A DNA stretch of 32,000 nucleotides from a virus (IMGVR_UViG_3300033407_000001:117276-149275); one strand, 5' to 3'; positions 4,368 through 25,268 are shown, counted from the stretch's first letter. A program made the numbers and translations. Notes: generated from the sequence alone by a model not told the origin.

Positions 4368-4952
4368 CTACTCAGCCGTTTCTCGAATAGCCTCCATTCG
4401 GTCTCGGACCTCCGATAGATTGGTGCCATCGTAGCGGACGACATTTGGGTGCGAAAAGCCATCGTTCCACCTGTGGGCTGGCATGATACCAAGTCCACGA
4501 GGGCGCCATTCTAGCCATCTGACCATATATCTGGGCCAGTCATCAGTGAGCATTTTGCCATACATAAGGCCCTTGTCCATACCGACAGTGACAAGGCAAT
4601 CCGGAACTTCCCGGCGACACCAAATGGCCTTCTCCGTCCATGCGCTAACCGTATTGGTTGGCCCTTTAGTCAGGATGTGATTGATGAAGTTCAGCTCACG
4701 GGCGATTTCCAGAACATCGAAGCCCAATTTAAATCTCTCCAGGTTCTCCCAGAATCCGGGCTGAGACTTGATCATAGCCTTGCGAGCTTCCATCCAGTCG
4801 GGAGTGGTTCCTGTCTCGAAAAGATCTGCGACATCAGTAAATTTTTCTTCTGGACTAGCTATCAGCGTGAGCTTCCCCCTCATAGACTTGTCGAAGTCTG
4901 CGAGGGTTCCATCTAGATCGAACAGAGCGATTGCTTCGTGTGGTTTTGTCAT
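4368..4952 (-). CDS. HAD-superfamily hydrolase (5'-nucleotidase-like)
   Basis: N-terminal FDLDGTLADF (DxDxT motif I). The ATG at 4952 follows the CCA of the upstream tRNA with no gap. Confidence 0.8.
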   Translation of the reverse strand: MTKPHEAIALFDLDGTLADFDKSMRGKLTLIASPEEKFTDVADLFETGTTPDWMEARKAMIKSQPGFWENLERFKLGFDVLEIARELNFINHILTKGPTNTVSAWTEKAIWCRREVPDCLVTVGMDKGLMYGKMLTDDWPRYMVRWLEWRPRGLGIMPAHRWNDGFSHPNVVRYDGTNLSEVRDRMEAIRETAE

Positions 4953-5030
4953 TGGTGACTCCGAGAGGACTTGAACCTCTGACCTTTGCTTTAGGAAAGC
5001 ACTGCTCTGATCCTACTGAGCTACGGAGCC
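4953..5030 (-). tRNA. tRNA-Arg(CCU)
   Basis: Cloverleaf read by eye: acceptor GGCUCCG/CGGAGUC, D arm GCUC..GAGC, anticodon loop UUCCUAA, T-loop UUCAAGU. CCA is encoded. Confidence 0.85.
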
Positions 5031-5341
5031 GTAAGTCTATTTGGTATCACAAGGGTGCCAAGGAAATGGCACCTGTCGTCCCTTGAAAGGCTTAGTACAG
5101 GGGTTTGATCACGATTGCGTACAAAGCGCCATCTACCGTTGGTGCAACGGTATGAATAGTCTCCAGACTCGAAGGAGTCAAATTCCAGGTCCCATAGTCG
5201 GCCTTGGATATCTTTGATAATGTCGTGTATCTGTCTGTCGTAGGCTTTGAGCTGTTTCGATAGGGCTATAGCACGACGGATGGATGCAACCATTTCCTTT
5301 TTGGAGGGCAATTTCTCTTCACTGTTCATTCGACCTACCAT
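5021..5341 (-). CDS. hypothetical protein (106 aa)
   Basis: Track ORF. Its UAG stop is formed by U8-A9-G10 of the downstream tRNA-Arg. Confidence 0.6.
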   Translation of the reverse strand: MVGRMNSEEKLPSKKEMVASIRRAIALSKQLKAYDRQIHDIIKDIQGRLWDLEFDSFESGDYSYRCTNGRWRFVRNRDQTPVLSLSRDDRCHFLGTLVIPNRLTAP

Positions 5342-5893
5342 CTAGTCCATCAGCATATCTGCGAGCCTATGATACTTGTCTCTATCCTCGATTGTCTGGG
5401 CCAATGTTTTTTGAAGATCGGCGATAACTGCAACAGAGAGCATGAGCACGGGTATCGTCACCGTGTGGGCATACTTGGCCTTCTTCTTGTGATCTTCGCT
5501 GGATTTTGAAGAGGCAATGGTTCCTTCGAGTATTTTTCCTAGCCATTGCGACGATTCTATAATCTCCTGACCCAGAAATGACCTCATGAGGGCCAGCTCA
5601 TCATCGGATGGGTTATCCCTTTCCATCACCCGAGTCGTGCGACACGGCAGGCATAGCTCATTCGTGCAATTGGTGGCCTTCTCAGCCTTCTCGATTATGC
5701 CGGTCATGATCTCACCTATGAGGTCACGATTTCCTTGCATTGATGCAGATATCGCAGATGCAGTTTCTGCCGGATGAGTCTTGGCGTAGCTGGTCAACTC
5801 GTCCAAGCATATCTCAATGGAGTCGGTGCAGATCCTTCCTGAGTAACATTGCGAGAATATCCGCCTGAAGGTATCTCGCAGTGGATCAATCAT
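5342..5893 (-). CDS. hypothetical protein (183 aa)
   Basis: ORF abuts the next gene with no gap. No motif recognised. Confidence 0.6.
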   Translation of the reverse strand: MIDPLRDTFRRIFSQCYSGRICTDSIEICLDELTSYAKTHPAETASAISASMQGNRDLIGEIMTGIIEKAEKATNCTNELCLPCRTTRVMERDNPSDDELALMRSFLGQEIIESSQWLGKILEGTIASSKSSEDHKKKAKYAHTVTIPVLMLSVAVIADLQKTLAQTIEDRDKYHRLADMLMD

Positions 5894-6435
5894 TCTTCGC
5901 TCTTCACATTCAAGAGTGGGCCACGCTCAAATCCTGGCCCCTTTTCATGGGGGAGCAGCTCTTGCGCCTTACTCCCCCATATGACGTAGGCTGGCAGCTT
6001 AAGCTGGCGAGATTCGTTTGTAGCATGGGCACCATCCCGGAATGGGACAGTGATTTGCGGACCACCCTTAGCATCAGGATGGAACTCGGCCTCCAGCCTT
6101 CCAGTGCTCCTAGTCAGTCCCAGCGGGACCTTGATGGTCTCACCGCATAGGTGTTTGAAGACGAGGTAGTACCAGCATCGGGTCTGGTAATGATAATCAT
6201 CCAGAGATTCCCATTGAAGCTCAAGACGAGGAATGGGGAGGCCAACAATGTCGTCTTCCTCCATGATGACATGCTCAGTCCATGCCCACCGATCCTCATT
6301 CTCAGCGAGCCTATCCTTGGTCTCGTACCTATCAAGCTTACCGTGCAGGGTCGTAAGCTCGACGTCTTTCATCTCCAGCAGCTCCTCCATCCTGGATAGT
6401 GCCGTCGATAGTGTTTCCTCTTCTTCTTTGTCCAT
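5890..6435 (-). CDS. hypothetical protein (181 aa; start trimmed)
   Basis: The ATG at 6435 (MDKEEEE..) lies 3 nt after the tRNA CCA. The longer track ORF overlaps that tRNA. Confidence 0.6.
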   Translation of the reverse strand: MDKEEEETLSTALSRMEELLEMKDVELTTLHGKLDRYETKDRLAENEDRWAWTEHVIMEEDDIVGLPIPRLELQWESLDDYHYQTRCWYYLVFKHLCGETIKVPLGLTRSTGRLEAEFHPDAKGGPQITVPFRDGAHATNESRQLKLPAYVIWGSKAQELLPHEKGPGFERGPLLNVKSEE

Positions 6436-6438
6436 AGT

Positions 6439-6516
6439 TGGCACCTCCGGCAGGACTCGAACCTGCGACAACACCGGGTAGAAGCCGGTTGCTCTAATCC
6501 TCTGAGCTACGGAGGC
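6439..6516 (-). tRNA. tRNA-Arg(UCU)
   Basis: Acceptor GCCUCCG/CGGAGGU, anticodon arm ACCGG-CUUCUAC-CCGGU, T arm GCAGG-UUCGAGU-CCUGC. CCA is encoded. Confidence 0.85.
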
Positions 6517-6534
6517 ATTAACCTCTCACCTTTA

Positions 6535-6563
6535 TTTTTCTCGTCGATACCGGCAATTGTCAA
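6535..6563 (-). promoter_or_regulatory. TTGACAAT promoter-like motif upstream of tRNA-Arg(UCU)
   Basis: - strand CAUCTTGACAATTG with the -35 element at 6558-6563, followed by an A/T-rich -10 region. Confidence 0.35.
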
Positions 6564-6949
6564 GATGAGCGGAATCTCTTGCGCACGACATTCTGGAATC
6601 CACTCCTTTGAAAGAGAGTTTCCATGCTCTGTGCGCCATAATCATTCCAGGAATGAATGAGTACCCGATCGGGTCTCTTATCCTTATCGAGGTCCTGGCA
6701 GATAAAGAGAGCGATATGATACCCACTGACATACGGGAGCCCGACTTTATCGGCTATCTCCGAATTCCCGGTACCAAGGTCATGATCTAAGAAGACGATG
6801 TCGAACTTAGGTCCGAAGGTCATCTCCCTAATTACTTCATCGAAGTTGTAGCAATGAACAACCTCCTCATTCCTGAGGATTGAAGCAAAGACATCATGTC
6901 GTTCCTGCTCGTCATCGAGAACGAGGGCTCTCTTCTTTTGCCGGCTCAA
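6560..6949 (-). CDS. CheY-like receiver (REC) domain protein, stand-alone
   Basis: ALVLDDE followed by DIVFLDHDLG, spaced as expected for a receiver-fold acidic pocket. Confidence 0.5.
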   Translation of the reverse strand: MSRQKKRALVLDDEQERHDVFASILRNEEVVHCYNFDEVIREMTFGPKFDIVFLDHDLGTGNSEIADKVGLPYVSGYHIALFICQDLDKDKRPDRVLIHSWNDYGAQSMETLFQRSGFQNVVRKRFRSS

Positions 6950-7185
6950 TTTTTCTTCGGCTTAAGAACCCTGACCTTCAGGGCCCTAGGATCAAAGGAT
7001 CCCCTGTGCAGGTTATGATCTTCATCAAACCAGGCAACCTCAGTTGTTACACCTATGGTTATGGCTCCCTTCTCATCGCTTATGACCGACGGAGAGTTAC
7101 CGGTAACTGTCATCAGCAATTCCTTCGATGATGGAAGGTAGACGATAGCTCCAACAGGGATGGTAGTACTTTTCTTCTTACTCAT
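6946..7185 (-). CDS. DUF2158/YodC-like small protein (79 aa; start trimmed)
   Basis: ..LMTVTG..VAWFDEDHNLHRGSFDPRAL resembles the YodC family. The A of its ATG is A76 of the tRNA-Ser CCA. Confidence 0.5.
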   Translation of the reverse strand: MSKKKSTTIPVGAIVYLPSSKELLMTVTGNSPSVISDEKGAITIGVTTEVAWFDEDHNLHRGSFDPRALKVRVLKPKKN

Positions 7186-7274
7186 GGCGGAGAGAACGAG
7201 GGTCGAACTCGCAAGGACTGTTAAGTCTCGTCCGCTTTCCAAGCGGGTGCCATCACCAATTGGCTTGCCTCTCC
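7185..7274 (-). tRNA. tRNA-Ser(GGA)
   Basis: Class II tRNA: acceptor GGAGAGG/UCUCUCC, 3-bp D stem, anticodon loop UUGGAAA, long variable arm. CCA is encoded. Confidence 0.85.
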
Positions 7275-7520
7275 AAATAGCTTCTCGTGAATATCATAGC
7301 TTGTGACGCCATCTTCATCTTCAAAATGGGCACAGAAATGATCCAATTCACGGCCACACGATGAACAGTCTTGGCCGAATTCGAGATTCTCCCATTCGTA
7401 TTGGGTGATCTCAAATTCACCAGACCCAAGACACTCATCCTGATCTAGATGCCAATCAGGATGACGCCGCCAGGTCCTGGGCCCAACCGGATTTCCGCAG
7501 GTCCAGGTGATCTTTACCAT
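7221..7520 (-). CDS. hypothetical Cys-rich protein (99 aa; start trimmed)
   Basis: The ATG at 7520 overlaps the RF gene's UGA (UGAUG). The last 54 nt overlap tRNA-Ser. Confidence 0.45.
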   Translation of the reverse strand: MVKITWTCGNPVGPRTWRRHPDWHLDQDECLGSGEFEITQYEWENLEFGQDCSSCGRELDHFCAHFEDEDGVTSYDIHEKLFGEASQLVMAPAWKADET

Positions 7521-8186
7521 CACCAGTTCCCCTTCATGTAATCCTTCAGATTCCATTGCTTACCTAAAATATGGTCTACCACGGAACCATCCTGAACCCG
7601 AATTGTTCTGCGCTTGTCAGCTCTCATTCCTGAGCCAATCTGAGATCTCCTATCATTGGCCCTAGAGCTGGCAGCTCTCTCCCTCTGGGCCTCCATAAGC
7701 CTGGCCCGGAGAAGCTCCATGGCCGTCTCCCGGTTGAAATGCTGAGACCTCTCAGACTCACAGCGGACAGAGACCCCGGTTGGAATGTGCGTCAACTGGA
7801 CAGCACTGTCTGTCACGTTGCGATGCTGACCACCAGCGCCTGAGCCTCGACAGGCTTTCCAGGAGATGTCTCTATCACAGATCTTAAGCTCTGAGTGAGT
7901 CGGGATAGACATAACGGCAACCGTGATGGTGCTCGTCTGCCTTCTCCCTTTCTTCTCCGTTGGCGGAACCCGCTGCCAACGATGACCGCCAGACTCATTC
8001 GCAAAAGTCTTCTGAGCCTGCTTGCCTGTTGCCTTGAAGATCAGTAATCCAGGTCGTTCCGTAAGGATTTCGTAGCTAAAGAGATCTCCGTGCTCCAACC
8101 TTCGCGTAGATTGCGAATTGATCCTGCACGAGTAGTTTGGCGTCGTTGCCGCCTTCGGCTGCTCTTATTTCTACGATCACTGACAT
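7520..8186 (-). CDS. RF1-like peptide chain release factor lacking domain 1, with a putative programmed +1 frameshift (join 8186..8079, 8077..7520)
   Basis: Frame A (ATG 8186, with GAGGAGAGG SD) encodes MSVIVEIRAAEGGNDAKLL..YAKVGARRSL and then UAG. Frame B continues SYEILTERPG..ESGGHRWQRVPPTE..SGAGGQHRN... Together they align to RF1 domains 2-4, including the PxT-type loop and GGQ. Confidence 0.75.
8075..8089 (-). promoter_or_regulatory. candidate +1 frameshift site GGAG-AUCU-CUU-UAG-C
   Basis: The - strand reads CGG AGA UCU CUU UAG CUA CGA. E. coli prfB has AGG GGG UAU CUU UGA CUA CGA. Here there is an SD-like GGAG 4 nt before CUU. Confidence 0.6.
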
Positions 8187-8187
8187 A

Positions 8188-8421
8188 TCAACCTCTCCTC
8201 TTTTTCTTTTTCTTATCCGGGAGCGGAATTAGTGCGCCAATTGCCCTGGGCTCCACACCACCCTGAATAAGTCTGAGTTCACGCTGCTCTTGCGTCCATC
8301 TCTGTCGATCTTCTTCTCTCTTCTCAGATGTTTCATTTCCACAATTTTGACAGTACGTGACCAATGAATCGCGGGTCCTGTGTACATCAACGTCGTCGTA
8401 TCCACAAGCTATGCAGCCCAA
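8188..8421 (-). CDS. zinc-ribbon protein with a poly-Lys tail (77 aa)
   Basis: Contains CxxC..CxxC and ends in KKKKKRRG. Its stop lies 1 nt before the RF ATG. Confidence 0.55.
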   Translation of the reverse strand: MGCIACGYDDVDVHRTRDSLVTYCQNCGNETSEKREEDRQRWTQEQRELRLIQGGVEPRAIGALIPLPDKKKKKRRG

Positions 8422-8433
8422 TCGATATGCCTA

Positions 8434-15359: not shown

Positions 15360-15442
15360 TACCGAAGATGGGAGTCGAACCCACACGCCCTTGCGGGCAC
15401 CGGCTTTTGAGACCAGCGTGTCTACCATTCCACCACCTCGGC
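15360..15442 (-). tRNA. tRNA-Leu(CAA)
   Basis: Class II tRNA: GCCGAGG.., GGUGGAAUGGUAGACAC D region, loop CUCAAAA, variable arm UGCCCGCAAGGGCGU. No CCA is encoded. Confidence 0.8.
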
Positions 15443-15515
15443 GTATGCGACGGGACTCGAACCCGCAACGACCCGATTGCTTAAACGGGCGCTCTACCAA
15501 TTGAGCTACGCAAAC
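15442..15515 (-). tRNA. tRNA with an enlarged or bulged anticodon arm (CCCG-UUUAAGCAAU-CGGG); identity unresolved
   Basis: Normal acceptor (one U-U mismatch), GCUC..GAGC D arm and GCGGG-UUCGAGU-CCCGU T arm. Its last nucleotide would be G1 of the next tRNA. Confidence 0.55.
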
Positions 15516-15556: not shown

Positions 15557-15584
15557 TGGTGCTCGGATGAGGAATCGAACCTCA
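15557..15584 (-). other. tRNA 3'-half-like minihelix (T arm, acceptor 3' strand, A, CCA)
   Basis: UGAGG-UUCGAUU-CCUCA-UCCGAGC-A-CCA. The complementary GCUCGGA lies at 15634-15640 inside the upstream CDS. The intervening 49 nt do not fold into a cloverleaf. Confidence 0.4.
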
Positions 15585-15596
15585 CTTTTCTGGACA

Positions 15597-16259
15597 TCAT
15601 GCATGAGGAGCAGTTGCATCTTCAATCAATGCTTCCGAGCGTAATTTCTTCCCAAGCTCTTCAATGTTAAAGCTCTGGGCGCAGGCGATCTGTATCACCG
15701 GGCAATCTTTCTCCCACCACTCTATGTCGATAGCCGACTTGAGTGAGCTGGAGTTGGGTAGCTCGATATAGCCAAATCTATCGTCGCGGATGAGGATTCC
15801 TTCGCTGATTTTACTCAGGTCCAGATATTGAATCTTCCAAGAGCTATCATCTCCCCAGACGCAGCCGGCGACAAAGCCGAAACTTCCGTCGGGGTCGGAT
15901 TCGGTTCCAAGCTCACTTTTGCATCCTACGGTGGGAACGTAGAAGTCGGTCGGGCAAAACCCAAATCCATCCCGGTCTTCGCCACAGATGTCTTTGCAAG
16001 CAGGCAGGGACATCACTCTGGTTGCAGTGTAATCCCTGGAGTAGAGAGCGTATTCCTTGCCACCCTGCACGAAAGGCACAAACGTGTTGTACATCGAGCT
16101 GTAGTTGCGGTCGTATTCTCCAATCTCGACCTTGGAATCACCTTCCACGCGGAAGATCTTAACCTTGAGAACATTCCAGCATCCAGGTTTACTAGCGATG
16201 GACTCGGTCTCAGTTACGTATTTTTCTGAAAGTTGCATGATGTCTTCTCCGTTTTTCAT
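15597..16259 (-). CDS. hypothetical protein (220 aa)
   Basis: The ATG at 16259 abuts the tRNA CCA. An alternative ATG at 16238 has a GGAG SD. Confidence 0.6.
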   Translation of the reverse strand: MKNGEDIMQLSEKYVTETESIASKPGCWNVLKVKIFRVEGDSKVEIGEYDRNYSSMYNTFVPFVQGGKEYALYSRDYTATRVMSLPACKDICGEDRDGFGFCPTDFYVPTVGCKSELGTESDPDGSFGFVAGCVWGDDSSWKIQYLDLSKISEGILIRDDRFGYIELPNSSSLKSAIDIEWWEKDCPVIQIACAQSFNIEELGKKLRSEALIEDATAPHA

Positions 16260-16337
16260 TGGCGCAGAGGAATGGAATCGAACCACTGACCTTCCGACTC
16301 CGAGAAGCCGTCTGCTCTACCACTGAGCTACCTCCGC
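16260..16337 (-). tRNA. aberrant tRNA: G3:U70 acceptor with a UCU-type anticodon loop and a 3-bp anticodon stem
   Basis: Acceptor GCGGAGG/CCUCUGC gives G3-U70. Anticodon region is GAC-GGCUUCUCGGA-GUC. There is an 8-nt variable region. CCA is encoded. Confidence 0.6.
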
Positions 16338-16339: not shown

Positions 16340-16448
16340 TGGTGCGCGGCAGTGGAATCGAACCACCTACCCTATCGCTTCCGCAATGCGCCCCGGTACC
16401 AAGACACATGCTTCCACGATAGACCTCCCCCAGAATGGGCCACCGCGC
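16340..16448 (-). ncRNA. 109-nt tRNA-like gene (canonical acceptor, T arm and CCA; interior unresolved)
   Basis: GCGCGGU/GCCGCGC acceptor, GGUGG-UUCGAUU-CCACU T arm, then A and CCA. The interior contains a 6-7 bp stem CUAUCG/CGAUAG enclosing 39 nt. Confidence 0.5.
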
Positions 16449-16455
16449 GAATTTA

Positions 16456-16993: not shown

Positions 16994-17299
16994 CTACTTC
17001 TCGACCTTCACGCACTTGCCGTAGATCTTGTTTCTTCCGATCCATCCGTTCCTCCCACCTCGATTGTTGCCAATGAGGTATCGATCTTGGATGACCGACT
17101 TTATCAGATGCAGATACTCAGCACCCTTGACCTTGCAGAGAACGATATCCTCCGTCACCAGCCGCGACGATTCCGATATAGGCTCTACAGTGACAAGGTC
17201 TCCGTTATTGACTCTGCCAGTCATTGAGTGACCTCGCGGTCTGAATTGGACCGTTTCACCCTCAATGAGTTTGTCTATGTAGTCTTTAGCCCATCCCAT
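16994..17299 (-). CDS. S24 (LexA/UmuD-like) peptidase domain protein
   Basis: RPRGHSMTGRVNNGDLVTVEP (the G-x-S-M Ser motif) and a downstream Lys in ..HLIKSV... Confidence 0.6.
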   Translation of the reverse strand: MGWAKDYIDKLIEGETVQFRPRGHSMTGRVNNGDLVTVEPISESSRLVTEDIVLCKVKGAEYLHLIKSVIQDRYLIGNNRGGRNGWIGRNKIYGKCVKVEK

Positions 17300-17304
17300 A
17301 ATAG

Positions 17305-17387
17305 TGCTCAGAAGGGGAGTCGAACCCCTACGCCCTTGCGGGCACTGGCTCCTTAGGCCAGCGTGTCTGCCATTCCACCACCTGAGC
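17305..17387 (-). tRNA. tRNA-Leu(AAG)
   Basis: Class II tRNA and a near-paralog of the one at 15360-15442. Perfect CUGGC/GCCAG stem with loop CUAAGGA (A34). No CCA is encoded. Confidence 0.8.
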
Positions 17388-18485: not shown

Positions 18486-18562
18486 TGGTGCCACAGGCGG
18501 GGTTCGAACCCGCAAAATCCTGATTTTAAGTCAGGCACCTATGCCAGTTAGATCACTGTGGC
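18486..18562 (-). tRNA. class I tRNA with anticodon UAA (Leu codons UUA/UUG by anticodon, but no long variable arm)
   Basis: GCCACAG/CUGUGGC, AUCU..AGGU D arm, CCUGA-CUUAAAA-UCAGG, 5-nt variable loop, GCGGG-UUCGAAC-CCCGC. CCA is encoded. Confidence 0.8.
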
Positions 18563-18747
18563 AAACTATTTGTATTTGATACCCTGCCTGAGGGTATCAA
18601 TTCGACAGCGAGCTGAGTCGGGGTAGTCCCCGTAGCCCGCTGCGATGGCCCGGATAACTGCCTCAACATCTGATGGGGGACTTCCATCTGGAATGTCCCT
18701 GAGCCCATCCTGAACCATTCTAACGACGTCACGCGCCACCTCTTCAT
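18553..18747 (-). CDS. questionable ORF (64 aa)
   Basis: The stop is U8-G9-A10 of the tRNA. The ORF contains a perfect 10-bp hairpin, so coding status is doubtful. Confidence 0.3.
   Translation of the reverse strand: MKRWRVTSLEWFRMGSGTFQMEVPHQMLRQLSGPSQRATGTTPTQLAVELIPSGRVSNTNSLPQ
18576..18600. repeat. perfect 10-bp inverted repeat (hairpin)
   Basis: TTGATACCCT-GCCTG-AGGGTATCAA, located just upstream of the tRNA 5' end. Confidence 0.6.
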
Positions 18748-18754: not shown

Positions 18755-18931
18755 TCAGAAGTTCGGAGGAACGCAGTTTGGCCATCTGAACTCATGTCCT
18801 ACTGGCCCAGCCCACCATACCTGAATCCTATATTGCCCCATGGCAAACGCCGACACCATCAGGGTGTACTGGCCGGATGTCCATTCACTGAGAGACTGTG
18901 GAGTCGTCAGTGATGCTAAGGTGAACTGCAT
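18755..18931 (-). CDS. hypothetical protein (58 aa; start uncertain)
   Basis: Track ORF 18755..18970, trimmed to the internal ATG to limit overlap with the upstream gene. Confidence 0.35.
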   Translation of the reverse strand: MQFTLASLTTPQSLSEWTSGQYTLMVSAFAMGQYRIQVWWAGPVGHEFRWPNCVPPNF

Positions 18932-19179
18932 TCCTCTGCCGTGACCTTGATGACGATATGCTTTGTCCATTCAACGTGAGGCTTACCCGCATCCTCGCAA
19001 GCGCCACAATAGAAGGTTAAATCTTCTATTTTATTGACTGATGGATACATGATGTAGGCGCCGTCGCCGCAAGCCATTATCTCCTTCCCACACCCTGGGC
19101 AGTCGTCGTAGACGCTGAATGGTGGATAGAAGCGTTTAATGTCTAGCTCTATTGGATCTTTACTGTGTGTAATTCGCAT
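18916..19179 (-). CDS. zinc-ribbon protein (87 aa)
   Basis: CPGC..CGAC pairs. The ATG abuts the CCA of tRNA-Ile. Confidence 0.55.
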   Translation of the reverse strand: MRITHSKDPIELDIKRFYPPFSVYDDCPGCGKEIMACGDGAYIMYPSVNKIEDLTFYCGACEDAGKPHVEWTKHIVIKVTAEECSSP

Positions 19180-19253
19180 TGGTCCCTCGACGAAGAGTCG
19201 AACTTCGGTCTATCGGTTATCAGCCGAGTGCTCTGCCATTGAGCTATCAAGGG
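19180..19253 (-). tRNA. tRNA-Ile(GAU)
   Basis: CCCUUGA/UCGAGGG, loop CUGAUAA, CGAAG-UUCGACU-CUUCG. CCA is encoded. Confidence 0.85.
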
Positions 19254-19259
19254 GTAAAT

Positions 19260-19532
19260 CTATAGGCGCGTAATCTTGCCATCGATCGTGCTATCGAGAA
19301 ACATGAAGGTCTTCCCGGTTTCGATGTCTTCAATCTTGGTGTGACTCCCGCCAGGACGGAGATCAACCTCCCACTCGCGCCCATGATCTATCACTCTAAC
19401 GATGATACCGTTGAATTCCTCTTCGATCACAGGAAATTCGACCTCTACGCACTTGCCAGCAGCATCCCATGCAGCATCCCAGTGATGCACTCCAGCGGGA
19501 ACGTGAACATGGGTATGGAGAGGGAAAATCAT
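19260..19532 (-). CDS. hypothetical His-rich protein (90 aa)
   Basis: Track ORF with a 1-nt overlap with the upstream gene. Confidence 0.6.
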   Translation of the reverse strand: MIFPLHTHVHVPAGVHHWDAAWDAAGKCVEVEFPVIEEEFNGIIVRVIDHGREWEVDLRPGGSHTKIEDIETGKTFMFLDSTIDGKITRL

Positions 19533-19810
19533 CAGTTCAGCATATCCCGTGGCACAACGTCGAATCCAAGCATCTGCAAGTTCTCACGTAACTTCCTGCA
19601 GTCTGGAGTCTTTGTCGTGACCGTGGAAGAGGCAATCGTAATGTACCCAAGCAGGGAGTGATTGCTCATCTCGTCAATGCGGTCTTCCGTAAAGAGAACT
19701 GCGTCGTGTAGCAGACTGAAGCAGTGCTGTTTGTGACGGTCGGGCTCGACCTGTCCCAGCTCGCTCATGGTTTTGCTTAGGCTGCGTACTTTTTCTTGTA
19801 TTGTCGTCAT
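19532..19810 (-). CDS. hypothetical protein (92 aa; start trimmed)
   Basis: The ATG at 19810 lies 5 nt after tRNA-Val. The longer ORF overlaps that tRNA. Confidence 0.6.
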   Translation of the reverse strand: MTTIQEKVRSLSKTMSELGQVEPDRHKQHCFSLLHDAVLFTEDRIDEMSNHSLLGYITIASSTVTTKTPDCRKLRENLQMLGFDVVPRDMLN

Positions 19811-19815
19811 CTTAG

Positions 19816-19887
19816 TGCCCCCAGATGGGATTGAACCACCGACCATCGCCTTGTAAGGGCGCCGCTCTCCCGCTGAGCTATAAGGGC
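19816..19887 (-). tRNA. tRNA-Val(UAC)
   Basis: GCCCUUA/UGGGGGC, GCGCC-CUUACAA-GGCGA, GGUGG-UUCAAUC-CCAUC. No CCA is encoded. Confidence 0.85.
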
Positions 19888-19920
19888 AGAATCTCAGGCA
19901 TGAAGCCTATTGTAAAGTTT

Positions 19921-20322
19921 TTAGCTTAGTCCCTTGGGGACGCATAGGAACATGGGAGTTCTTGCTCCCATCCAAGTATCGTCTACGTTGAATGAGAAGT
20001 ACTCTTCAGCTTCTTCCTCGGTCATGCCATCTCTGTTCATGAGAATCTCTATACAGAGCCTCCTGTCGTAGCAGGTAACGGGGCGCTTCCCTTTGCCATA
20101 CACGACTCCAACGAAGGCCTCCTCAAAGCCGTCGGCATGCAGGAACCTCTTTTCCGGCCATTCCTCTATAAGGAATCGATCGATCTCTTCTTTATCCATA
20201 GACTTCCGCCATCCGCAAGATCCATCATGTCCATCGTCGAGTAGGCATACTGAGTCCAAATCTGGACTTGGCTTCCAGCACATCCCCTCAACCTTGAATG
20301 AGGCTATCTGTTCTTTATCCAT
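19921..20322 (-). CDS. hypothetical protein (133 aa)
   Basis: Track ORF. The A of its ATG is A76 of the upstream tRNA (CCAUGG). Confidence 0.65.
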   Translation of the reverse strand: MDKEQIASFKVEGMCWKPSPDLDSVCLLDDGHDGSCGWRKSMDKEEIDRFLIEEWPEKRFLHADGFEEAFVGVVYGKGKRPVTCYDRRLCIEILMNRDGMTEEEAEEYFSFNVDDTWMGARTPMFLCVPKGLS

Positions 20323-20395
20323 GGTGGTAAAGGAGGGACTCGAACCCTCGCCGAATGCCTTATGAAAGCACCGTCCTAACCCGTAGGGCCTTACC
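20322..20395 (-). tRNA. tRNA(CAU), Met or Ile2
   Basis: GGUAAGG/CUUUACC, loop UUCAUAA, GAGGG-UUCGAGU-CCCUC. CCA is encoded. The D arm is irregular. Confidence 0.75.
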
Positions 20396-20396
20396 C

Positions 20397-20591
20397 TTAT
20401 GCTAAGCCTTCTTGCTCAGCAAATCGTTCAAGAATAACGAGTTCACCTTCCGTATCCTCATTATAGACTTCGGAATTTGCGTGAATCGCCCACTGAGGGA
20501 TCCAGACTTCCTCGCCCTCAATAAGACACTTGAGTGCTTTGCCGGTGTCGTGAATCACTGAGACATTATAGAATGATACTGTGCTTTCCAT
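20397..20591 (-). CDS. hypothetical protein (64 aa)
   Basis: Track ORF whose stop lies 1 nt before the tRNA 5' end. Confidence 0.6.
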   Translation of the reverse strand: MESTVSFYNVSVIHDTGKALKCLIEGEEVWIPQWAIHANSEVYNEDTEGELVILERFAEQEGLA

Positions 20592-20608
20592 TGTTTTTAT
20601 CTCTTATC

Positions 20609-20684: not shown

Positions 20685-20954
20685 TTAAACATCTGATACA
20701 TCGCGGTGATGCCTGCTGGCGTTCTCGTTTTTATGCAGCCATTCCGCGCTTCTTCGTCTATCCCCTACGGAGATAATTCTGAACTTCTTCTCAGGGGGTA
20801 CGCCGAACTTTCTCTCGCTGAAATAGATAAGCTTACCCACCTTAGCAAGCTTCTCTGGGATCCATGACTCATCCCATTGGGTGGTGCCGCCTTCTGGGAA
20901 GGCACTCTCGTATCGACATTGTCGATAGAATATCTGGCTGCTTGGCTTAGACAT
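20685..20954 (-). CDS. hypothetical protein (89 aa)
   Basis: Track ORF whose UAA abuts the tRNA 5' end with no gap. Confidence 0.6.
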   Translation of the reverse strand: MSKPSSQIFYRQCRYESAFPEGGTTQWDESWIPEKLAKVGKLIYFSERKFGVPPEKKFRIISVGDRRRSAEWLHKNENASRHHRDVSDV

Positions 20955-21232: not shown

Positions 21233-21344
21233 TATTACTTACCTCGAACCCGAGCCATACACCAGCGGCATGCCTTGGCGATAGAGCCACCGATAATGAC
21301 GAGGAGTGTCACTTCGCCCACTCCTCCGCAGATGCAAAAAATCA
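21183..21344 (-). CDS. possible small membrane protein (53 aa)
   Basis: The ATG lies 7 nt after the -10 of the 21352-21380 promoter. It has a hydrophobic N-terminal half and overlaps the next gene by 50 nt. It falls below the track threshold. Confidence 0.3.
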
Positions 21345-21351
21345 TTTGCTG

Positions 21352-21380
21352 AAGCTATTTCCAGGTGAGGCAATTGTCAA
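21352..21380 (-). promoter_or_regulatory. TTGACAAT promoter directly after the tRNA CCA
   Basis: - strand CCA-AUC-TTGACAATTG, 17 nt spacer, TAGCUU. Confidence 0.45.
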
Positions 21381-21383
21381 GAT

Positions 21384-21459
21384 TGGTGCCACCGGCGGGG
21401 ATCGAACCTGCAATCTCTTCCTTCGGAGGGAAGCGCCTTATCCGTTTGGCCACGGTGAC
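21384..21459 (-). tRNA. tRNA-Arg(CCG)
   Basis: GUCACCG/CGGUGGC, CUUCC-CUCCGAA-GGAAG. One mismatch in the T stem. CCA is encoded. Confidence 0.8.
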
Positions 21460-21463
21460 AAAT

Positions 21464-21538
21464 TGGCACCTCCACCAGGGGTCGAACCTGGATTCCCGGT
21501 TCCGTAGACCGGTGCTCTATCCATTGAGCTATGGAGGC
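21464..21538 (-). tRNA. tRNA-Arg(ACG)
   Basis: GCCUCCA/UGGAGGU, CCGGU-CUACGGA-ACCGG, CCAGG-UUCGACC-CCUGG. CCA is encoded. Confidence 0.85.
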
Positions 21539-21545
21539 AAAAAAA

Positions 21546-21620
21546 TGGAGCCCACGGGCAGAATCGAACTGCCGTGCTCCGTCTTACCAAGACGGCGCTA
21601 AACCACTTAGCTACGCGGGC
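21546..21620 (-). tRNA. tRNA-Thr(GGU)
   Basis: GCCCGCG/CGUGGGC, CCGUC-UUGGUAA-GACGG, GGCAG-UUCGAUU-CUGCC. CCA is encoded. Confidence 0.85.
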
Positions 21621-21808
21621 TTATTGTGTCTCTTTACGATCATGTTTTGACATACGCGACATGTGACCTTGCCGATGTCGGATGTCCATTCATATCCCTG
21701 TATGGAGACCTTAGATCTGCACCAGAGTACATGTGGCTCAAAGATCGGCACACCGACATGCTCCAGCGGTCTGCCGTCTGGCCAATAATGGATCTTTCCT
21801 GGTCTCAT
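21611..21808 (-). CDS. hypothetical protein (65 aa)
   Basis: Track ORF whose UAG stop is U8-A9-G10 of tRNA-Thr. Confidence 0.55.
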   Translation of the reverse strand: MRPGKIHYWPDGRPLEHVGVPIFEPHVLWCRSKVSIQGYEWTSDIGKVTCRVCQNMIVKRHNKPA

Positions 21809-21966
21809 CGAATGACTGGTATTTCAATTACCACAGGTTGGTAGTAGAGATTGATCTTAGATGCCAGGCAGTAGTGGCACTTGTCATGTTCCACCCACTC
21901 ATTGCACTCCCAGCACATCACCTTGGCGTGTTCAAGGTCTTGAGGTAATCGGTAACGACATTTCAT
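21805..21966 (-). CDS. hypothetical Cys-rich protein (53 aa; start trimmed)
   Basis: The ATG at 21966 shares its A with the CCA of tRNA-Val. CWEC..C..HYC pattern. Confidence 0.5.
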   Translation of the reverse strand: MKCRYRLPQDLEHAKVMCWECNEWVEHDKCHYCLASKINLYYQPVVIEIPVIR

Positions 21967-22040
21967 GGTGCGCGAGAGAGGAATTGAACCTCCTACCTCT
22001 TGAATGTCAAACAAGTACTCTACCAGTGAGCTACTCGCGC
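21966..22040 (-). tRNA. tRNA-Val(GAC)
   Basis: GCGCGAG/CUCGCGC, loop UUGACAU, GGAGG-UUCAAUU-CCUCU. CCA is encoded. Confidence 0.85.
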
Positions 22041-22042
22041 AG

Positions 22043-22071
22043 TTGCTCAGATCTCCCACATGAGCTATAAT
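22043..22071 (+). promoter_or_regulatory. + strand promoter candidate
   Basis: TTGCTC (22043-22048), 17 nt spacer, perfect TATAAT (22066-22071). It would read antisense through tRNA-Glu into the + strand ORFs at 22240. Confidence 0.4.
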
Positions 22072-22161
22072 GGCACACAGATGAAGTGCCGGTTATCGGC
22101 CCTATGAACGCCCAGATTCAAGTGATTCCAGGGCTCTAGAAGACTGATGGGAAGCCTGAAT

Positions 22162-22236
22162 TGGTGACCCCAGAGAGGATCGAACTCTCGTTGCCGGCGT
22201 GAAAGGCCGGAATCTTAGCCACTAGACGATGGGGTC
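22162..22236 (-). tRNA. tRNA-Glu(UUC)
   Basis: GACCCCA/UGGGGUC, CCGGC-CUUUCAC-GCCGG, GAGAG-UUCGAUC-CUCUC. CCA is encoded. Confidence 0.85.
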
Positions 22237-22239
22237 GAA

Positions 22240-22416
22240 ATGACAGAATTGGAAATGATCCAAGTACTTAAAACATATGGAGATCACAAGGACAGCTGTG
22301 GAATCACCAAGGTTCTCAAGAACCCACGGGCGGCGACAGATTCTGAGGGGTATCGGATCTATCCTCAGTGCAGCTGTGGATGGGGTAAGATCATATGGGC
22401 GCTACATGGGAGGTAG
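22240..22416 (+). CDS. hypothetical protein (58 aa)
   Basis: ATG..TAG ORF just below the track threshold (MTELEMIQVLKTYGDHKDSCG..). It fills the gap between - strand tRNAs. Confidence 0.4.
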   Translation: MTELEMIQVLKTYGDHKDSCGITKVLKNPRAATDSEGYRIYPQCSCGWGKIIWALHGR

Positions 22417-22425
22417 GAGTCGCGA

Positions 22426-22578
22426 ATGAAAATCTTCAGGGAGAAGCCCGGCATTATAAGCGAGGATGCCTGCTGGGTAGGTCTGCACGACTGTTACCTG
22501 TATGTGGAGGATACGTTGGTTGAACTCCTCGTGACCATACTTACCGAGTGGAAGCATGACAGGCATCTAGTAGGTTAA
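22426..22578 (+). CDS. hypothetical protein (50 aa)
   Basis: AGGAG lies 8 nt upstream of the ATG (MKIFREKPGIISEDACW..). The ORF ends 1 nt before tRNA-Cys on the other strand. Confidence 0.4.
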   Translation: MKIFREKPGIISEDACWVGLHDCYLYVEDTLVELLVTILTEWKHDRHLVG

Positions 22579-22579
22579 T

Positions 22580-22653
22580 TGGAGGTTCAGGGCGGAATCG
22601 AACCGCCGATCCTGGAGTTGCAAACCAGTGCCTTTCCTCTTGGCTACTGAACC
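22580..22653 (-). tRNA. tRNA-Cys(GCA)
   Basis: GGUUCAG/CUGAACC, loop UUGCAAC, GGCGG-UUCGAUU-CCGCC. CCA is encoded. Confidence 0.85.
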
Positions 22654-22654
22654 G

Positions 22655-22730
22655 TGGCGTCCTTGAGGGGAATCGAACCCGCTGTCTCCGGCTTGAGAGG
22701 CCGGCGAACTTGCCGTTGTTCTACAAGGAC
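22655..22730 (-). tRNA. tRNA-Glu(CUC)
   Basis: GUCCUUG/CAAGGAC, CCGGC-CUCUCAA-GCCGG. One C-C mismatch in the T stem. CCA is encoded. Confidence 0.8.
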
Positions 22731-22752
22731 AAAAATGATCTAAGATCTACGT

Positions 22753-23349
22753 GTGACTTTGAAAGCTAGATTCATAAAAGAAGTGGGAACTCGCGCCAGC
22801 CTCCGTGTGTACTGGGGTAAAGACTGCCCTAGTTGCATCGGTGGTAAGAACAGAGGTTATCACAACGCTCAGATTCACCTGGGCGACTCACCGACCATTG
22901 GTGATTGGAAGCTCGGCGGCGAGATCTCCGACTACCAGGATAACCGGTGGCCTAAAAAATGCGACCACTGTGACGCAGTGGTGCCGGAAGAGGCTGAGAG
23001 GCAGGTGTTTCGTAAGAGAATCTATGACACTGCCTCTGGGTTCCCGGAGCCTGGAGATCTGTACTGGGCCGATTGGTACTCTAAGAGGGACGGTCCTGGG
23101 TGTGTGTTCCACGACAACTGCACTGGTAAGCATCTCCGGGCCATTCTCCCCAATGGGCTAGAGTGGGACATTGACGGCAAGGCTAGTAATTGCACTATGC
23201 CGAAGGATAGGCTGCATCGTTGCTGGGTGAGGAAGGGCGAACCGCCTAATGTTGATGTTGGCAAGGGTGGTAACACCTGCGCAGCAGGGGCTGGCTCCAT
23301 CGCAGTTGAGGGCTACCATGGATTTTTACGCAATGGCTCGTTCACGTAG
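22753..23349 (+). CDS. conserved-looking Cys-rich hypothetical protein (198 aa, GTG start)
   Basis: Long + strand ORF with multiple CxxC/HxC pairs and a C-terminal ..CAAGAGSIAVEGYHGFLRNG. I cannot name the family. Confidence 0.6.
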   Translation: MTLKARFIKEVGTRASLRVYWGKDCPSCIGGKNRGYHNAQIHLGDSPTIGDWKLGGEISDYQDNRWPKKCDHCDAVVPEEAERQVFRKRIYDTASGFPEPGDLYWADWYSKRDGPGCVFHDNCTGKHLRAILPNGLEWDIDGKASNCTMPKDRLHRCWVRKGEPPNVDVGKGGNTCAAGAGSIAVEGYHGFLRNGSFT

Positions 23350-23350
23350 T

Positions 23351-23428
23351 TGGCGCACCCCCTGGGGATCGAACCCAGCTAAAATCGGTTAACAGCCGAT
23401 CGCTTTCAACCAGAAGAGCTAGAGGTGC
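23351..23428 (-). tRNA. tRNA-Asn(GUU)
   Basis: GCACCUC/GGGGUGC, AUCGG-CUGUUAA-CCGAU, CUGGG-UUCGAUC-CCCAG. CCA is encoded. Confidence 0.85.
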
Positions 23429-23441
23429 AAATTTTTATCGG

Positions 23442-23660
23442 TCAACATCTCATCACTTGGTTATTGAGCGAGTGATGAGATGAGTGGATCGCGTTGAGCT
23501 TATCCTGCTTATCCTTATCGCCCATGGACGGATCGATGTCGTGTACAAAGACTAGGGCCAAGTGATTTTTCAAACACTCGGTTTGCTCAGCATTAAGCTC
23601 GGTCAATTGACCCATCTCTAAGCATCCTTGCAACCAAAAGCAAAAGTCTCGCGATGTCAT
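23442..23660 (-). CDS. hypothetical protein (72 aa)
   Basis: Track ORF. No motif recognised. Confidence 0.55.
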   Translation of the reverse strand: MTSRDFCFWLQGCLEMGQLTELNAEQTECLKNHLALVFVHDIDPSMGDKDKQDKLNAIHSSHHSLNNQVMRC

Positions 23661-23703
23661 TGTAATATGCTAGCAGCATGGGATCTGGTATGAAAGATCT
23701 GAC

Positions 23704-24039
23704 GTGAAACTTGTCATTATAGAATCACCGTATGCCGGCAACGTGTCCATGAACCTCCGATATCTCCGAGCCTGCCTACGAGACAGTCTTAATCGAGGGG
23801 AGGCTCCTTATGCCTCTCATGGCTTATATACGCAGGAGGGTGTACTCGATGATTCCATTCCAGAGGAGCGCATGCAGGGCATCCATGCTGGCTTCGCATG
23901 GCGACAGGTTGCGCATCTGACTGCTGTCTATGGAGATCTGGGTGTCTCCGATGGGATGCAATACGGTATAGATGACGCCGAGAAGAGATTGGTGCCTGTT
24001 GACTACCGCTCTCTTGGTGGCCATTGGTACGGTAGTTAG
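23704..24039 (+). CDS. DUF4406 / nucleoside 2-deoxyribosyltransferase-like protein (GTG start)
   Basis: VIIESPYAG..GEAPYASH..VYGDLGVSDGM pattern resembles that fold family. Confidence 0.5.
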   Translation: MKLVIIESPYAGNVSMNLRYLRACLRDSLNRGEAPYASHGLYTQEGVLDDSIPEERMQGIHAGFAWRQVAHLTAVYGDLGVSDGMQYGIDDAEKRLVPVDYRSLGGHWYGS

Positions 24040-24111
24040 TTCCAGGGGCAAGACTCGAACTTGCATTACCCTGCTTAACAGGCAGGTGACTTGCCTTTAG
24101 CCGACCCTGGA
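24040..24111 (-). tRNA. tRNA-Asn(GUU), second canonical copy
   Basis: UCCAGGG/CCCUGGA, CCUGC-CUGUUAA-GCAGG, GCAAG-UUCGAGU-CUUGC. No CCA is encoded. Confidence 0.85.
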
Positions 24112-24112
24112 A

Positions 24113-24187
24113 TGGAGCCCGTGAGAGGAATCGAACCACCAACCTACGCTTTACAAAAGCGTTGCTCTACCGTTGAGCTACACGGGC
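24113..24187 (-). tRNA. tRNA-Thr(UGU)
   Basis: GCCCGUG/CACGGGC, ACGCU-UUUGUAA-AGCGU. CCA is encoded. Confidence 0.85.
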
Positions 24188-24191
24188 AAAT

Positions 24192-24265
24192 TGGTTCGGG
24201 GTGAAGGAGTCGAACCCTCGTAGTCTGGTCCAAAACCAGAAGTCCTACCTTTAGACGAACCCCGA
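24192..24265 (-). tRNA. tRNA-Gln(UUG)
   Basis: UCGGGGU/ACCCCGA, UCUGG-UUUUGGA-CCAGA. CCA is encoded. Confidence 0.85.
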
Positions 24266-24287
24266 ATAAAAATGTAGTATCCACTGT

Positions 24288-24458
24288 ATGCAGCCAACAG
24301 ATAAGCGTAAGCAAAGCCTGTATTTTCCAGAAGATATCCTTGAGGAGATCAAAATGGAGGCGGAGCGCCAAGATAAATCAATGTCATGGATCGTCCAGAG
24401 GGCATGGATGATCGCTCGCGCCGAGATGGCAAAGATGCCTTCAGTTAACGATCTTTAG
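24288..24458 (+). CDS. ribbon-helix-helix (CopG-like) DNA-binding protein, 56 aa
   Basis: KRKQSLYFPEDILEEIKMEAERQDKSMSWIVQRAW matches the RHH beta-strand and helix pattern. It falls below the track threshold. Confidence 0.55.
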   Translation: MQPTDKRKQSLYFPEDILEEIKMEAERQDKSMSWIVQRAWMIARAEMAKMPSVNDL

Positions 24459-24529
24459 AGCCCCTGGGCAGAATCGAACTGCCATCGCCTGCTTACGAGG
24501 CAGGTGCGCTGCCATTGTGCTACAGGGGC
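24459..24529 (-). tRNA. tRNA-Thr(CGU)
   Basis: GCCCCUG/CAGGGGC, CCUGC-CUCGUAA-GCAGG, GGCAG-UUCGAUU-CUGCC. No CCA is encoded. Confidence 0.85.
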
Positions 24530-24530
24530 G

Positions 24531-24806
24531 TTAAACCTTAAGAGTCGTAATACTGGCCCGGACTCGATCGGAGACTCGTTGGCACTGCTGCTGCCACCAT
24601 TCATCATCGACCATGGCTAGTCCTGAGACTTCACCCTTGCATTCCCATGTCTCCGTGTTGACGTAGAAGCTGGCAAATTGGTTCTCCTTCCAGCCTTTCT
24701 CCTTAAATGGAGCCCATTGCGGACTGGCTGGAACTATGGCGGTGACCAAAATCTCCTTGATGGTTAGCTCTGGCCTATGTACGACTTCAGCTTCTTCTTT
24801 TTCCAT
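24531..24806 (-). CDS. hypothetical protein (91 aa)
   Basis: The A of its ATG is A76 of tRNA-Gly. Its stop lies 1 nt before tRNA-Thr. Confidence 0.6.
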   Translation of the reverse strand: MEKEEAEVVHRPELTIKEILVTAIVPASPQWAPFKEKGWKENQFASFYVNTETWECKGEVSGLAMVDDEWWQQQCQRVSDRVRASITTLKV

Positions 24807-24879
24807 GGAGCGGGTACGGAGAATCGAACTCCGGTCTACAGGATGGAAGCCTGCAACTCTACCATTGAGCTATACCCGC
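24806..24879 (-). tRNA. tRNA-Gly(UCC)
   Basis: GCGGGUA/UACCCGC, GCAGG-CUUCCAU-CCUGU, CGGAG-UUCGAUU-CUCCG. CCA is encoded. Confidence 0.85.
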
Positions 24880-25268
24880 CTATTGTGAGTTCTAATTGCG
24901 TGGCAGTTGGCGCATACGATCTCGCATTTTGCTGCCTCCCTGAGGATACGCTCTTTGCTCCCAAAGTAGGTCAACTTGCCAACGCCCATATCCTTGTCCC
25001 TGAGGTGATCAAACTGCATAACCCATGGTGGATATTCGATTTTACAGTCAAAACATGGAGTTCGCTTAAGGTCCCAGACAAAGTCTCTCAGCTTCTTCTG
25101 ACGTGATGATGACTGATCTACGTACCGTTGCTTGTTCTGCGCATAATGCATTTGGTGATATTCCCTCACGCACTCCTTGCAACGATTGCGATGACCATCC
25201 CTGGCCTTCTTGTTTCTGTGAAACTCTGAAATATCCTTGTCGTTTTTACACGATCCACATCTCTTCAC
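24870..25268 (-). CDS. HNH homing-type endonuclease
   Basis: CxxC..C..C N-terminal region, then FDHLRDK..CANCHAIRTH. The UAG stop is U8-A9-G10 of tRNA-Gly. Confidence 0.8.
   Translation of the reverse strand: MKRCGSCKNDKDISEFHRNKKARDGHRNRCKECVREYHQMHYAQNKQRYVDQSSSRQKKLRDFVWDLKRTPCFDCKIEYPPWVMQFDHLRDKDMGVGKLTYFGSKERILREAAKCEIVCANCHAIRTHNRRV

Follow-up and report, generated by a model that had tools for sequence, protein, structure and literature searches.

Open reading frames starting at tRNA 3' ends in a phage tRNA array and their possible relation to leaderless translation

Results

tRNA array and start-side junctions

The DNA analyzed here is the 32,000-nucleotide (nt) stretch 117276-149275 of the virus record IMGVR_UViG_3300033407_000001 (hereafter the window), and the subject of this study is the junction between the 3' end of a tRNA gene and the start codon of the next open reading frame (ORF). 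The record is 199.6 kb in length, is 92% complete, and contains approximately 45 tRNA genes and one transfer-messenger RNA (tmRNA) gene. No cultured phage close to this record was found. Thirty-nine tRNAs are located on the minus strand of the window, where they are interspersed among small same-strand ORFs from which a short spacer or none separates them, as in mitochondrial tRNA punctuation. All positions are given in window numbering, and junction distances are counted from the discriminator base N73, not from the CCA end. A junction is defined as an ATG that is located 2-6 nt past N73 of a non-tandem tRNA and opens an ORF of at least 45 codons. The genes were called with a simple codon model, and the sizes of the gene classes given below are approximate.

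Ten of the 31 non-tandem tRNAs form such a junction, with N73-to-ATG distances of 2, 2, 2, 2, 3, 3, 3, 5, 5 and 6 nt. Eight of the ten tRNAs encode CCA. The original prediction, which had compared this arrangement with mitochondrial punctuation, listed CCA-ATG at 4952, 16259 and 19179, CCATG at 7185, 20322, 21966 and 24806, and CCA-ACT-ATG at 6435, and all of these strings are found at these positions. The other two tRNAs are CCA-less and end with CUA. Their junctions, CUAUU-AUG at 17299 and CUAAG-AUG at 19810, were absent from that list.

All junction tRNAs and ORFs are encoded on the minus strand. The start codon is backed by homologues at five junctions. tRNA-Arg(CCT) (4953-5030), with encoded CCA, is followed 3 nt past N73 by the AUG of a HAD/NT5C-like 5'-nucleotidase of 194 residues (4368-4952), the start of which is validated by the DxDG motif, located at residue 12 here and likewise in the majority of 120 homologues, and by a 79% homologue that shares the N-terminus. 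tRNA-Ser(GGA) (7185-7274), which requires a relaxed ARAGORN threshold and has an Rfam score of 34.7 bits, shares its A76 with the AUG of a DUF2158-like ORF of 79 residues (6946-7185). A PHROG match from residue 2 supports this CCAUG start, and the gene caller of the assembly picked a shorter form. The CCA-less tRNA-Leu(AAG) (17304-17387) is followed at 5 nt by a 101-residue ORF (16994-17299), for which the homologue alignments begin at residue 1. The CCA-less tRNA-Val(TAC) (19815-19887) is followed at 5 nt by a 92-residue ORF (19532-19810). In two related phages, the orthologues of this ORF also abut tRNA-Val(TAC), at distances of 5 and 4 nt. tRNA-Gly(TCC) (24806-24879) shares its A76 with the AUG of a 91-residue ORF (24531-24806), which ends 1 nt before tRNA-Thr(CGT). 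This CCAUG start is needed, because the homologues align from residue 4-13.

At two further junctions, the same start is picked by the gene caller of the assembly. One is the junction of tRNA-Ile(GAT) (19180-19253), in which CCA is followed directly by the AUG of a Cys-rich ORF of 87 residues (18916-19179). The other is the junction of tRNA-Arg(TCT) (6439-6516) with a 181-residue ORF (5890-6435) that starts 6 nt past N73. The 3' acceptor strand of this tRNA contains GGAGGUG 6 nt before the AUG, and this one junction may be led by a Shine-Dalgarno (SD) sequence. The starts at the remaining three junctions are ambiguous or weak. A tRNA with an 8-nt anticodon loop, probably of the Arg UCG type (16260-16337), ends with CCA directly before the AUG of a conserved phage protein of 220 residues (15597-16259), in which codon 8 is another in-frame ATG that has GGAG upstream. 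A tRNA with a CAT anticodon (20322-20395) shares its A76 with the AUG of a 133-residue ORF (19921-20322; phrog_13182). The homologues of this ORF begin at an internal Met, and a 41-codon Cys/His N-terminal module is inserted before the duplicated start. A similar zinc-finger-like addition is present at a tRNA junction in relatives of the HAD gene. tRNA-Val(GAC) (21966-22040) shares its A76 with the AUG of a zinc-ribbon-like ORF of 53 residues (21805-21966), which has a codon score of -0.9 and is not called by the gene caller of the assembly, and for which the homologue search found none.

Two mini-ORFs of three and four codons (31538-31522 and 17782, minus strand) also start 4 and 6 nt past N73. 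The former ends 4 nt upstream of a 218-residue ORF, to which it could be coupled.

Frequency of start-side junctions

The start-side pattern is real and exceeds chance. Ten junction ATGs are observed, as compared to 1.9 expected from the rate further downstream (Poisson P = 3e-5). The original prediction had proposed a comparison of the adjacency rate with other phages, and this comparison reveals an enrichment, with junctions at 10 of 32 tRNAs in the window and at 18 of 381 at other phage loci (Fisher P = 9e-6). The tRNA-to-start distances, pooled with those of the related phages, are bimodal: 19 are 2-6 nt, none is 7-13 nt, six are 14-20 nt, and the others are at least 32 nt.

AU is located close behind N73 at 28 of 39 tandem tRNA junctions, where the spacer together with G1 of the next tRNA often spells ATG. 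Such near-ATGs open long ORFs at 22 of 27 sites after non-tandem tRNAs versus 1 of 12 tRNA-tRNA junctions (P = 3e-5), in a count that pools five related phage sequences, such that orthologues are counted more than once and are not independent. The rarity of long ORFs at tandem junctions means that the junction ORFs are not a by-product of the trailer string.

Translation starts of the phage

The genome is poor in SD motifs: those of at least 5 nt are located before 14% of the called genes, a share to which the phage promoter motif contributes, and before 4% of internal ATGs. Approximately one third of the genes abut or overlap the preceding stop codon. Promoter-made leaderless genes are numerous: a conserved motif ending with TGTTTA is located 6 nt before the ATG, and TTGACA shows a peak 35-36 nt before the ATG (16 matches among 132 sites). 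The suggestion in the original prediction that tRNA-derived leaderless mRNAs would fit the many leaderless starts near promoters is thus in keeping with the character of this genome. A generic promoter and terminator scan gives no excess over shuffled sequences, and therefore the evidence for promoters is provided by the spacing between TTGACA and ATG. A search for relatives by means of the phage promoter motif yields single scattered matches. A purine-rich leader of 14-20 nt, similar to GAGATAAG, is found after tRNAs at 20591-20608 of the window (minus strand) and at L146:9986-10000, and occurs three times in L146.

Neither a -10-like hexamer (4-9 nt before the AUG) nor a -35 box (at 35-36 nt) nor the TGTTTA motif is present at any of the ten junctions. 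The junction genes have no stop codon at coupling distance, and an SD motif is absent at seven of the ten junctions. The start codons are located a few nt past the tRNA 3' end with no promoter box at any junction and with no SD motif at seven. The fraction of A after the AUG is 0.53 for the junction genes, 0.46 for the promoter-made leaderless genes, 0.35 for the coupled genes (P = 5e-4 for junction versus coupled genes), and 0.26 for internal ATGs. The unfolding energy of the start region, a measure correlated with the A fraction, is 1.75, 2.2 and 4.6 kcal/mol for the junction, promoter-made leaderless and coupled genes respectively. The start regions of the junction genes resemble those of the leaderless class, not those of the coupled class.

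Conservation in related phages

Relatives were found by protein comparison, and those that are syntenic with the window are L061, L143, G006/G007 and G008. The distance from tRNA-Arg(CCT) to the AUG is 3 nt in the window (CCA), 2 nt in L061 and L143 (CC), 3 nt in G006 (CGA) and 3 nt in G008 (CUG). The gene located after this tRNA encodes the HAD protein in three of the five lineages and an unrelated 58-59-residue ORF in the other two. In two lineages, the HAD protein has an N-terminal addition of 28-33 residues, and the position of the AUG beside tRNA-Arg(CCT) is unchanged. Likewise, the orthologous ORF after tRNA-Val(TAC) starts at 5, 5 and 4 nt despite three different trailers. The distance is thus preserved between lineages whose proteins are 39-74% identical, and also where one gene has been replaced by another. 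L143 contains an additional CCA-less junction, CU-AUG.

A 75% homologue of the HAD gene that is located without a tRNA is preceded by TTGACA, a 17-nt spacer, a hexamer and 7 nt before the ATG, which is a promoter of the leaderless type. For the gene at 20591, which has an A-rich leader of 20 nt in the window, the orthologue in G008 abuts tRNA-Met and that in G006 is located 40 nt after TTGACA. The switch is not always to a promoter: the 79% homologue of the HAD gene is located 6 nt behind another ORF, and orthologues of the 17299 ORF have longer leaders.

As side observations, an annotated coding sequence of Streptomyces phage Annadreamy (L012:20543-20817) starts 1 nt past the discriminator of tRNA-Leu(GAG) (C-AUG), and similar C-AUG junctions are present in L146 and L210.

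Stop codons at tRNA 5' ends

The original prediction also dealt with the stop codons of the ORFs located before the tRNAs. All of its stop coordinates hold: the stops end at tRNA position 10 for the ORFs ending at 5021, 18553, 21611 and 24870, at position 11 for that ending at 30126, at position 18 for that ending at 28477, and at position 54 for that ending at 7221, and the gaps between the stop and the tRNA are 0, 1 and 1 nt for the ORFs ending at 20685, 20397 and 24531. Two of these ORFs are questionable. That ending at 18553 is probably in the wrong frame and is rejected as a gene, because its codon score is -9.4 and the frame that ends at 18566 scores +5.3; the likely real ORF (18566-18739, minus strand) ends 3 nt before tRNA-Leu(TAA). 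That ending at 21611 (65 residues) is weak, with a codon score of -3.9, and is not called by the gene caller of the assembly.

The other overlapping ORFs, all on the minus strand, show various degrees of overlap. An ORF of approximately 102-106 residues (5021-5341) ends at positions 8-10 of tRNA-Arg(CCT). The HNH endonuclease gene (24870-25268) ends 10 nt inside tRNA-Gly(TCC), where U8-A9-G10 is its stop codon. Its homologues show no fixed register, with overlaps of 24, 15 and 15 nt or with ends 5 or 12 nt short of a tRNA. A 99-residue ORF (7221-7520) runs 54 nt into tRNA-Ser(GGA). Its homologues stop at residue 83-86, 13-16 residues shorter, and therefore this overlap looks derived, like a lost stop. 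A prohead-protease-like ORF of 137 residues (28477-28890) runs 18 nt into tRNA-Ser(GCT).

A stop codon is offered at positions 8-10 or 9-11 in one frame by 22 of the 39 tRNAs, and the UAG at positions 8-10 belongs to the conserved sequence of tRNAs. Among six overlapping ORFs, four have their stop at positions 8-11, as compared to 19% expected (P ~0.01, calculated by hand). This excess shows that short overlaps are favored, not that the stops are coupled to tRNA processing. Antisense ORFs provide a control for packing. The stop of the ORF at 22753-23349 (plus strand) adjoins a tRNA 3' end, and further antisense ORFs end beside tRNA 3' ends at 22578, 24039, 24458 and 30042. These ORFs stop 0-7 nt from N73, and the packing is equally tight where no tRNA can punctuate them. 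The TAG stop of the antisense ORFs in 22426-24458 and 29839-30042 (plus strand) is often the complement of C74-U75-A76, and this is also the case in G006 and G008.

In the original prediction, mRNA 3' ends were thought to be coupled to RNase P cleavage. This is not supported, because the homologues have no fixed register, T5 shows the same overlaps, and the antisense ORFs are packed as tightly. A functional link between the stops at positions 8-10 and RNase P is therefore rejected. It was also suggested that cutting would remove some stop codons. RNase P would indeed remove some, and the tmRNA and the release factor encoded by the phage could clear the stalled ribosomes, but there is no sign of selection for such removal. 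The stops in the window are complete and located upstream of or inside the tRNA, unlike 3' ends that are set by RNase P and completed by polyadenylation. UA|G stops, in which the last G is the first base of the tRNA, are found only in relatives (L061:5318-5564, and L143:2738-3091 and 5468), and RNase P would leave UA from them. The stop side represents ordinary tight packing, in which an ORF continues until it meets a stop, and this stop is often the conserved U8-A9-G10. This side of the pattern adds nothing new.

Discussion

Proposed origin of the mRNA 5' ends

At the start-side junctions, tRNA 3' processing probably makes leaderless mRNAs. This part of the original prediction gains comparative support from the conserved spacing, the leaderless-like start regions and the lack of promoter boxes, while the release of the mRNA itself is something that we infer from these features. 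The tRNA array would be transcribed in vivo as mixed tRNA-ORF messages from TTGACA-type promoters, and a gene located after a tRNA would be initiated by one of three routes: from its own promoter located immediately behind the tRNA, through an A/G-rich leader of 14-20 nt, or from an AUG located 2-6 nt past the discriminator. In the third route, the host endonuclease by which the tRNA is freed at its 3' end would at the same time make the mRNA 5' end, and its product would be a monophosphorylated message with a leader of 0-5 nt, which would be bound directly by the 70S ribosome. IF3 modulates leaderless translation (PMC9031893). An initiation factor IF3 is encoded by the phage (G000:C1:13131-13388, L148).

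The position of the cut is restricted by the sequences of the junctions. The framing of the original prediction around CCA has to be changed, because CCA-less junctions exist as well, and because four junctions would lose the A of their AUG by a cut after A76. A cut after A76 is therefore rejected as a general mechanism. An RNase E/G-type cut N|AU directly before the AUG, or a cut after C74, would preserve all ten starts, and the tRNA end would afterwards be trimmed or completed by a CCA-adding enzyme. RNase Z cuts CCA-less precursors after N73 and is inhibited by C74, and in those cases in which CCA-bearing precursors are cut by it, the site is after A76 (PMC7479834). C74 is present in 124 of 126 tRNAs of the clade and in all 40 candidate host tRNAs. 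An RNase E-type N|AU cut or a C|CA cut fits better than a cut by classical RNase Z, because the A76 cut destroys the four CCAUG starts. Above the cut-off, canonical RNase Z is found in one of five candidate host genomes and RNase E/G in all five. Genes for a CCA-adding enzyme, an RNase Z-like enzyme or a protein-only RNase P were not found in the phage record, which is 92% complete; a PolyA_pol-family gene is present in one relative.

The consensus of RNase E is RN|WUU, with U two bases past the cut (PMC5222698), and in E. coli proline tRNAs this enzyme cuts directly after CCA, before AU (PMC5291269). An AUG would satisfy this rule at every observed distance if the cut is just before its A. 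C|CA cuts are known in the Actinobacteria Streptomyces and Propionibacterium (PMC4681348, PMC3848588), and such a cut would leave leaders of 1-5 nt. Either cut would leave a 5' phosphate, which is needed for leaderless translation (PMC9031893).

The host is reasonably, though without proof, taken to be a myxobacterium, mainly on the evidence of one gene: the TROVE/vWA gene is 73-75% identical to genes of Kofleriaceae genomes. One HAD homologue is from Nannocystis.

In a wider and more tentative proposal, the phage lineage may routinely use host tRNA 3' processing, probably by RNase E at N|AUG, with the start codon as the cleavage signal. The tRNA genes would then give genes that are newly acquired a plug-in means of starting translation, which would be the bacterial equivalent of start-side punctuation in mitochondria.

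Points against cleavage and alternative explanations

Several observations weigh against the formation of the mRNAs by cleavage. A 5'-monophosphorylated product is itself a good substrate of RNase E. Leaders of 1-5 nt lower leaderless initiation, although they do not abolish it (PMC8459731). The starts at 21966, 16259 and 20322, three of the ten, are weak or ambiguous, and AU is favored in all tRNA trailers of this array, which raises the chance of ATG. The host assignment depends mainly on one gene, and the candidate host tRNAs lack this layout, with the exception of one of 40. SD-like GGAG, GAGG or GGAGGUG is located in the acceptor 3' strand at three junctions (4952, 6435 and 19179). Finally, the predicted accessibility of the junction starts in the uncut transcript is no worse than that of the coupled genes, and the folding energies of the uncut and cut forms do not discriminate between them, so that a need for the cut is not demonstrated.

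The last two points bear on an alternative that we regard as unlikely, in which the ribosome loads on the A-rich, unstructured start located 3' of the tRNA in the uncut precursor, with processing and translation as alternative fates. In some cases, loading would be helped by an SD sequence in the acceptor strand, as could apply to the three junctions with SD-like motifs, or by melting of the acceptor stem when a ribosome coming from upstream terminates at or inside the tRNA 5' end. Six of the ten junction tRNAs have the stop of an upstream ORF within approximately 7 nt of, or inside, their 5' end, and the similar unfolding cost in the uncut context and the many genes of this phage that have neither SD, promoter nor coupling by simple classes are also consistent with this explanation. 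However, no upstream ORF abuts the tRNA at four junctions (6435, 16259, 19810 and 21966), and the SD motif is missing at seven. Initiation on the uncut precursor also leaves unexplained the empty zone of 7-13 nt and the pull of the AUG toward N73, and in T5, where initiation uses leaders, the shortest distance is 13 nt.

Passive packing, in which deletion bias and AU-rich trailers place an ATG beside the tRNAs and the genes are weakly expressed by any route without selected coupling, is quite improbable for the start side, although it explains the stop side well. The antisense ORFs that stop 0-7 nt from N73 and the tandem tRNA spacers, which often read CCAU-G or CGAAU-G, would be expected from packing. 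But packing does not supply initiation, and it does not account for the long ORFs opened at 22 of 27 versus 1 of 12 sites, for the spacing kept at 39-74% protein identity and through gene replacement, or for start regions tuned like leaderless ones.

In a further alternative, leaderless transcripts would begin at the AUG from cryptic promoters within the tRNA genes that are recognized by sigma factors of the host or the phage. Such promoters would be in line with the many promoter-made leaderless genes of the phage and with a TTGACA in the anticodon loop of tRNA-Val(GAC), 44 nt before the ATG at 21966, but are very improbable, since the promoter boxes and TGTTTA are absent at every junction, as described above, and no extra motif beyond the T arm is common to the ten tRNAs.

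Comparison with known systems

In animal mitochondria, excision of tRNAs by RNase P and RNase Z/ELAC2 punctuates the transcripts. The start side of the phage array is similar in that tRNAs are located among ORFs of the same strand, the AUG is a few nt from the tRNA 3' end, SD is lacking, and a nearly leaderless product is predicted. The phage differs in that it lives in a bacterium, approximately one third of its tRNAs are involved, and many of its genes keep their own promoter. Its CCA is often encoded and sometimes overlaps the AUG, and C74 is almost invariant, which disfavors classical RNase Z. The window shows no sign of selected 3'-end definition or of stop completion by poly(A). Because many of its tRNAs are followed by a TTGACA promoter of the next gene or by antisense ORFs, the array does not have the single long precursor of mitochondrial punctuation. 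The junctions thus probably work like the start half of mitochondrial punctuation, without its single precursor and its RNase P-made 3' ends, and probably with another nuclease. Animal mitochondrial tRNA punctuation is treated in PMC3790967 and PMC4787750.

The tRNA array of phage T5 (NC_005859) resembles that of the window in having small ORFs and HNH genes between the tRNAs and in having stops that abut or overlap tRNA 5' ends (overlaps of 6, 14, 23 and 24 nt and one abutting stop). However, each of the 12 T5 tRNAs with an ORF behind it is separated from this ORF by 13-34 nt, mostly with an AGGA-type SD, whereas the phage studied here leaves 0-3 nt past position 76, or overlaps position 76, in ten cases. 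Bacterial leaderless mRNAs, such as those of Caulobacter and mycobacteria and lambda cI (PMC8459731, PMC9031893), share the AUG, the lack of SD and the accessible A-rich start with the junction genes, but arise from transcription initiation, whereas the 5' ends at the junctions would come from tRNA maturation. A route to leaderless mRNAs through cleavage by MazF has been proposed and is disputed (PMC9031893). tRNA processing by RNase E (PMC5291269) and C|CA cleavage (PMC4681348, PMC3848588) are similar in that the cut is within a few nt of CCA, before AU, but the trailer in E. coli, Streptomyces and Propionibacterium is a terminator or a decay product, not an mRNA. In a literature search of incomplete coverage, no published phage or bacterial case of the start-side layout was found.

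Transcription initiation is regarded as the source of leaderless mRNAs in bacteria, and the phage junctions offer short, testable substrates for a cleavage route. Several independent genes keep the AUG against the tRNA end and thus provide substrates for locating the tRNA 3' cut site in bacteria with invariant C74. If the proposed mechanism is correct, start-side punctuation of the mitochondrial kind can also develop in bacteria, and large phage tRNA arrays have one more use. For annotation, start codons that overlap CCA can be right.

Other elements in the window

Two tRNA-like elements are located on the minus strand. That at 16340-16450 has an acceptor stem, D arm, T arm and CCA, but its anticodon arm is replaced by a long extended hairpin; it is located 2 nt before the next tRNA. 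That at 15557-15640 is degenerate, keeping the acceptor stem, T arm and CCA, and the 220-residue ORF extends 44 nt inside it. They are similar to plant mitochondrial t-elements, which are tRNA-like folds at mRNA ends (PMC1920247), but differ from them as no ORF starts directly after either element. Two tRNAs of the minus strand have unusual anticodon loops: the 8-nt loop of the tRNA at 16260-16337 is read as CTCG, and the tRNA at 15440-15515, which is of type I and overlaps the next tRNA, has a TAAG-like loop. tRNAs resembling both are present in G006 and G008.

An RF1-like release factor gene (7520-8186, minus strand) is divided in two by an in-frame UAG, the context of which (CUU-UAG-C) resembles the +1 frameshift site of prfB, and its downstream part has many metagenomic relatives. 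A cluster of TROVE/vWA, ThiF and ubiquitin-like genes (12572-14491 and neighbors) is followed downstream, at 8700-9700 (minus strand), by an array of tRNA-like T-arm repeats with weak Y-RNA-like Rfam matches.

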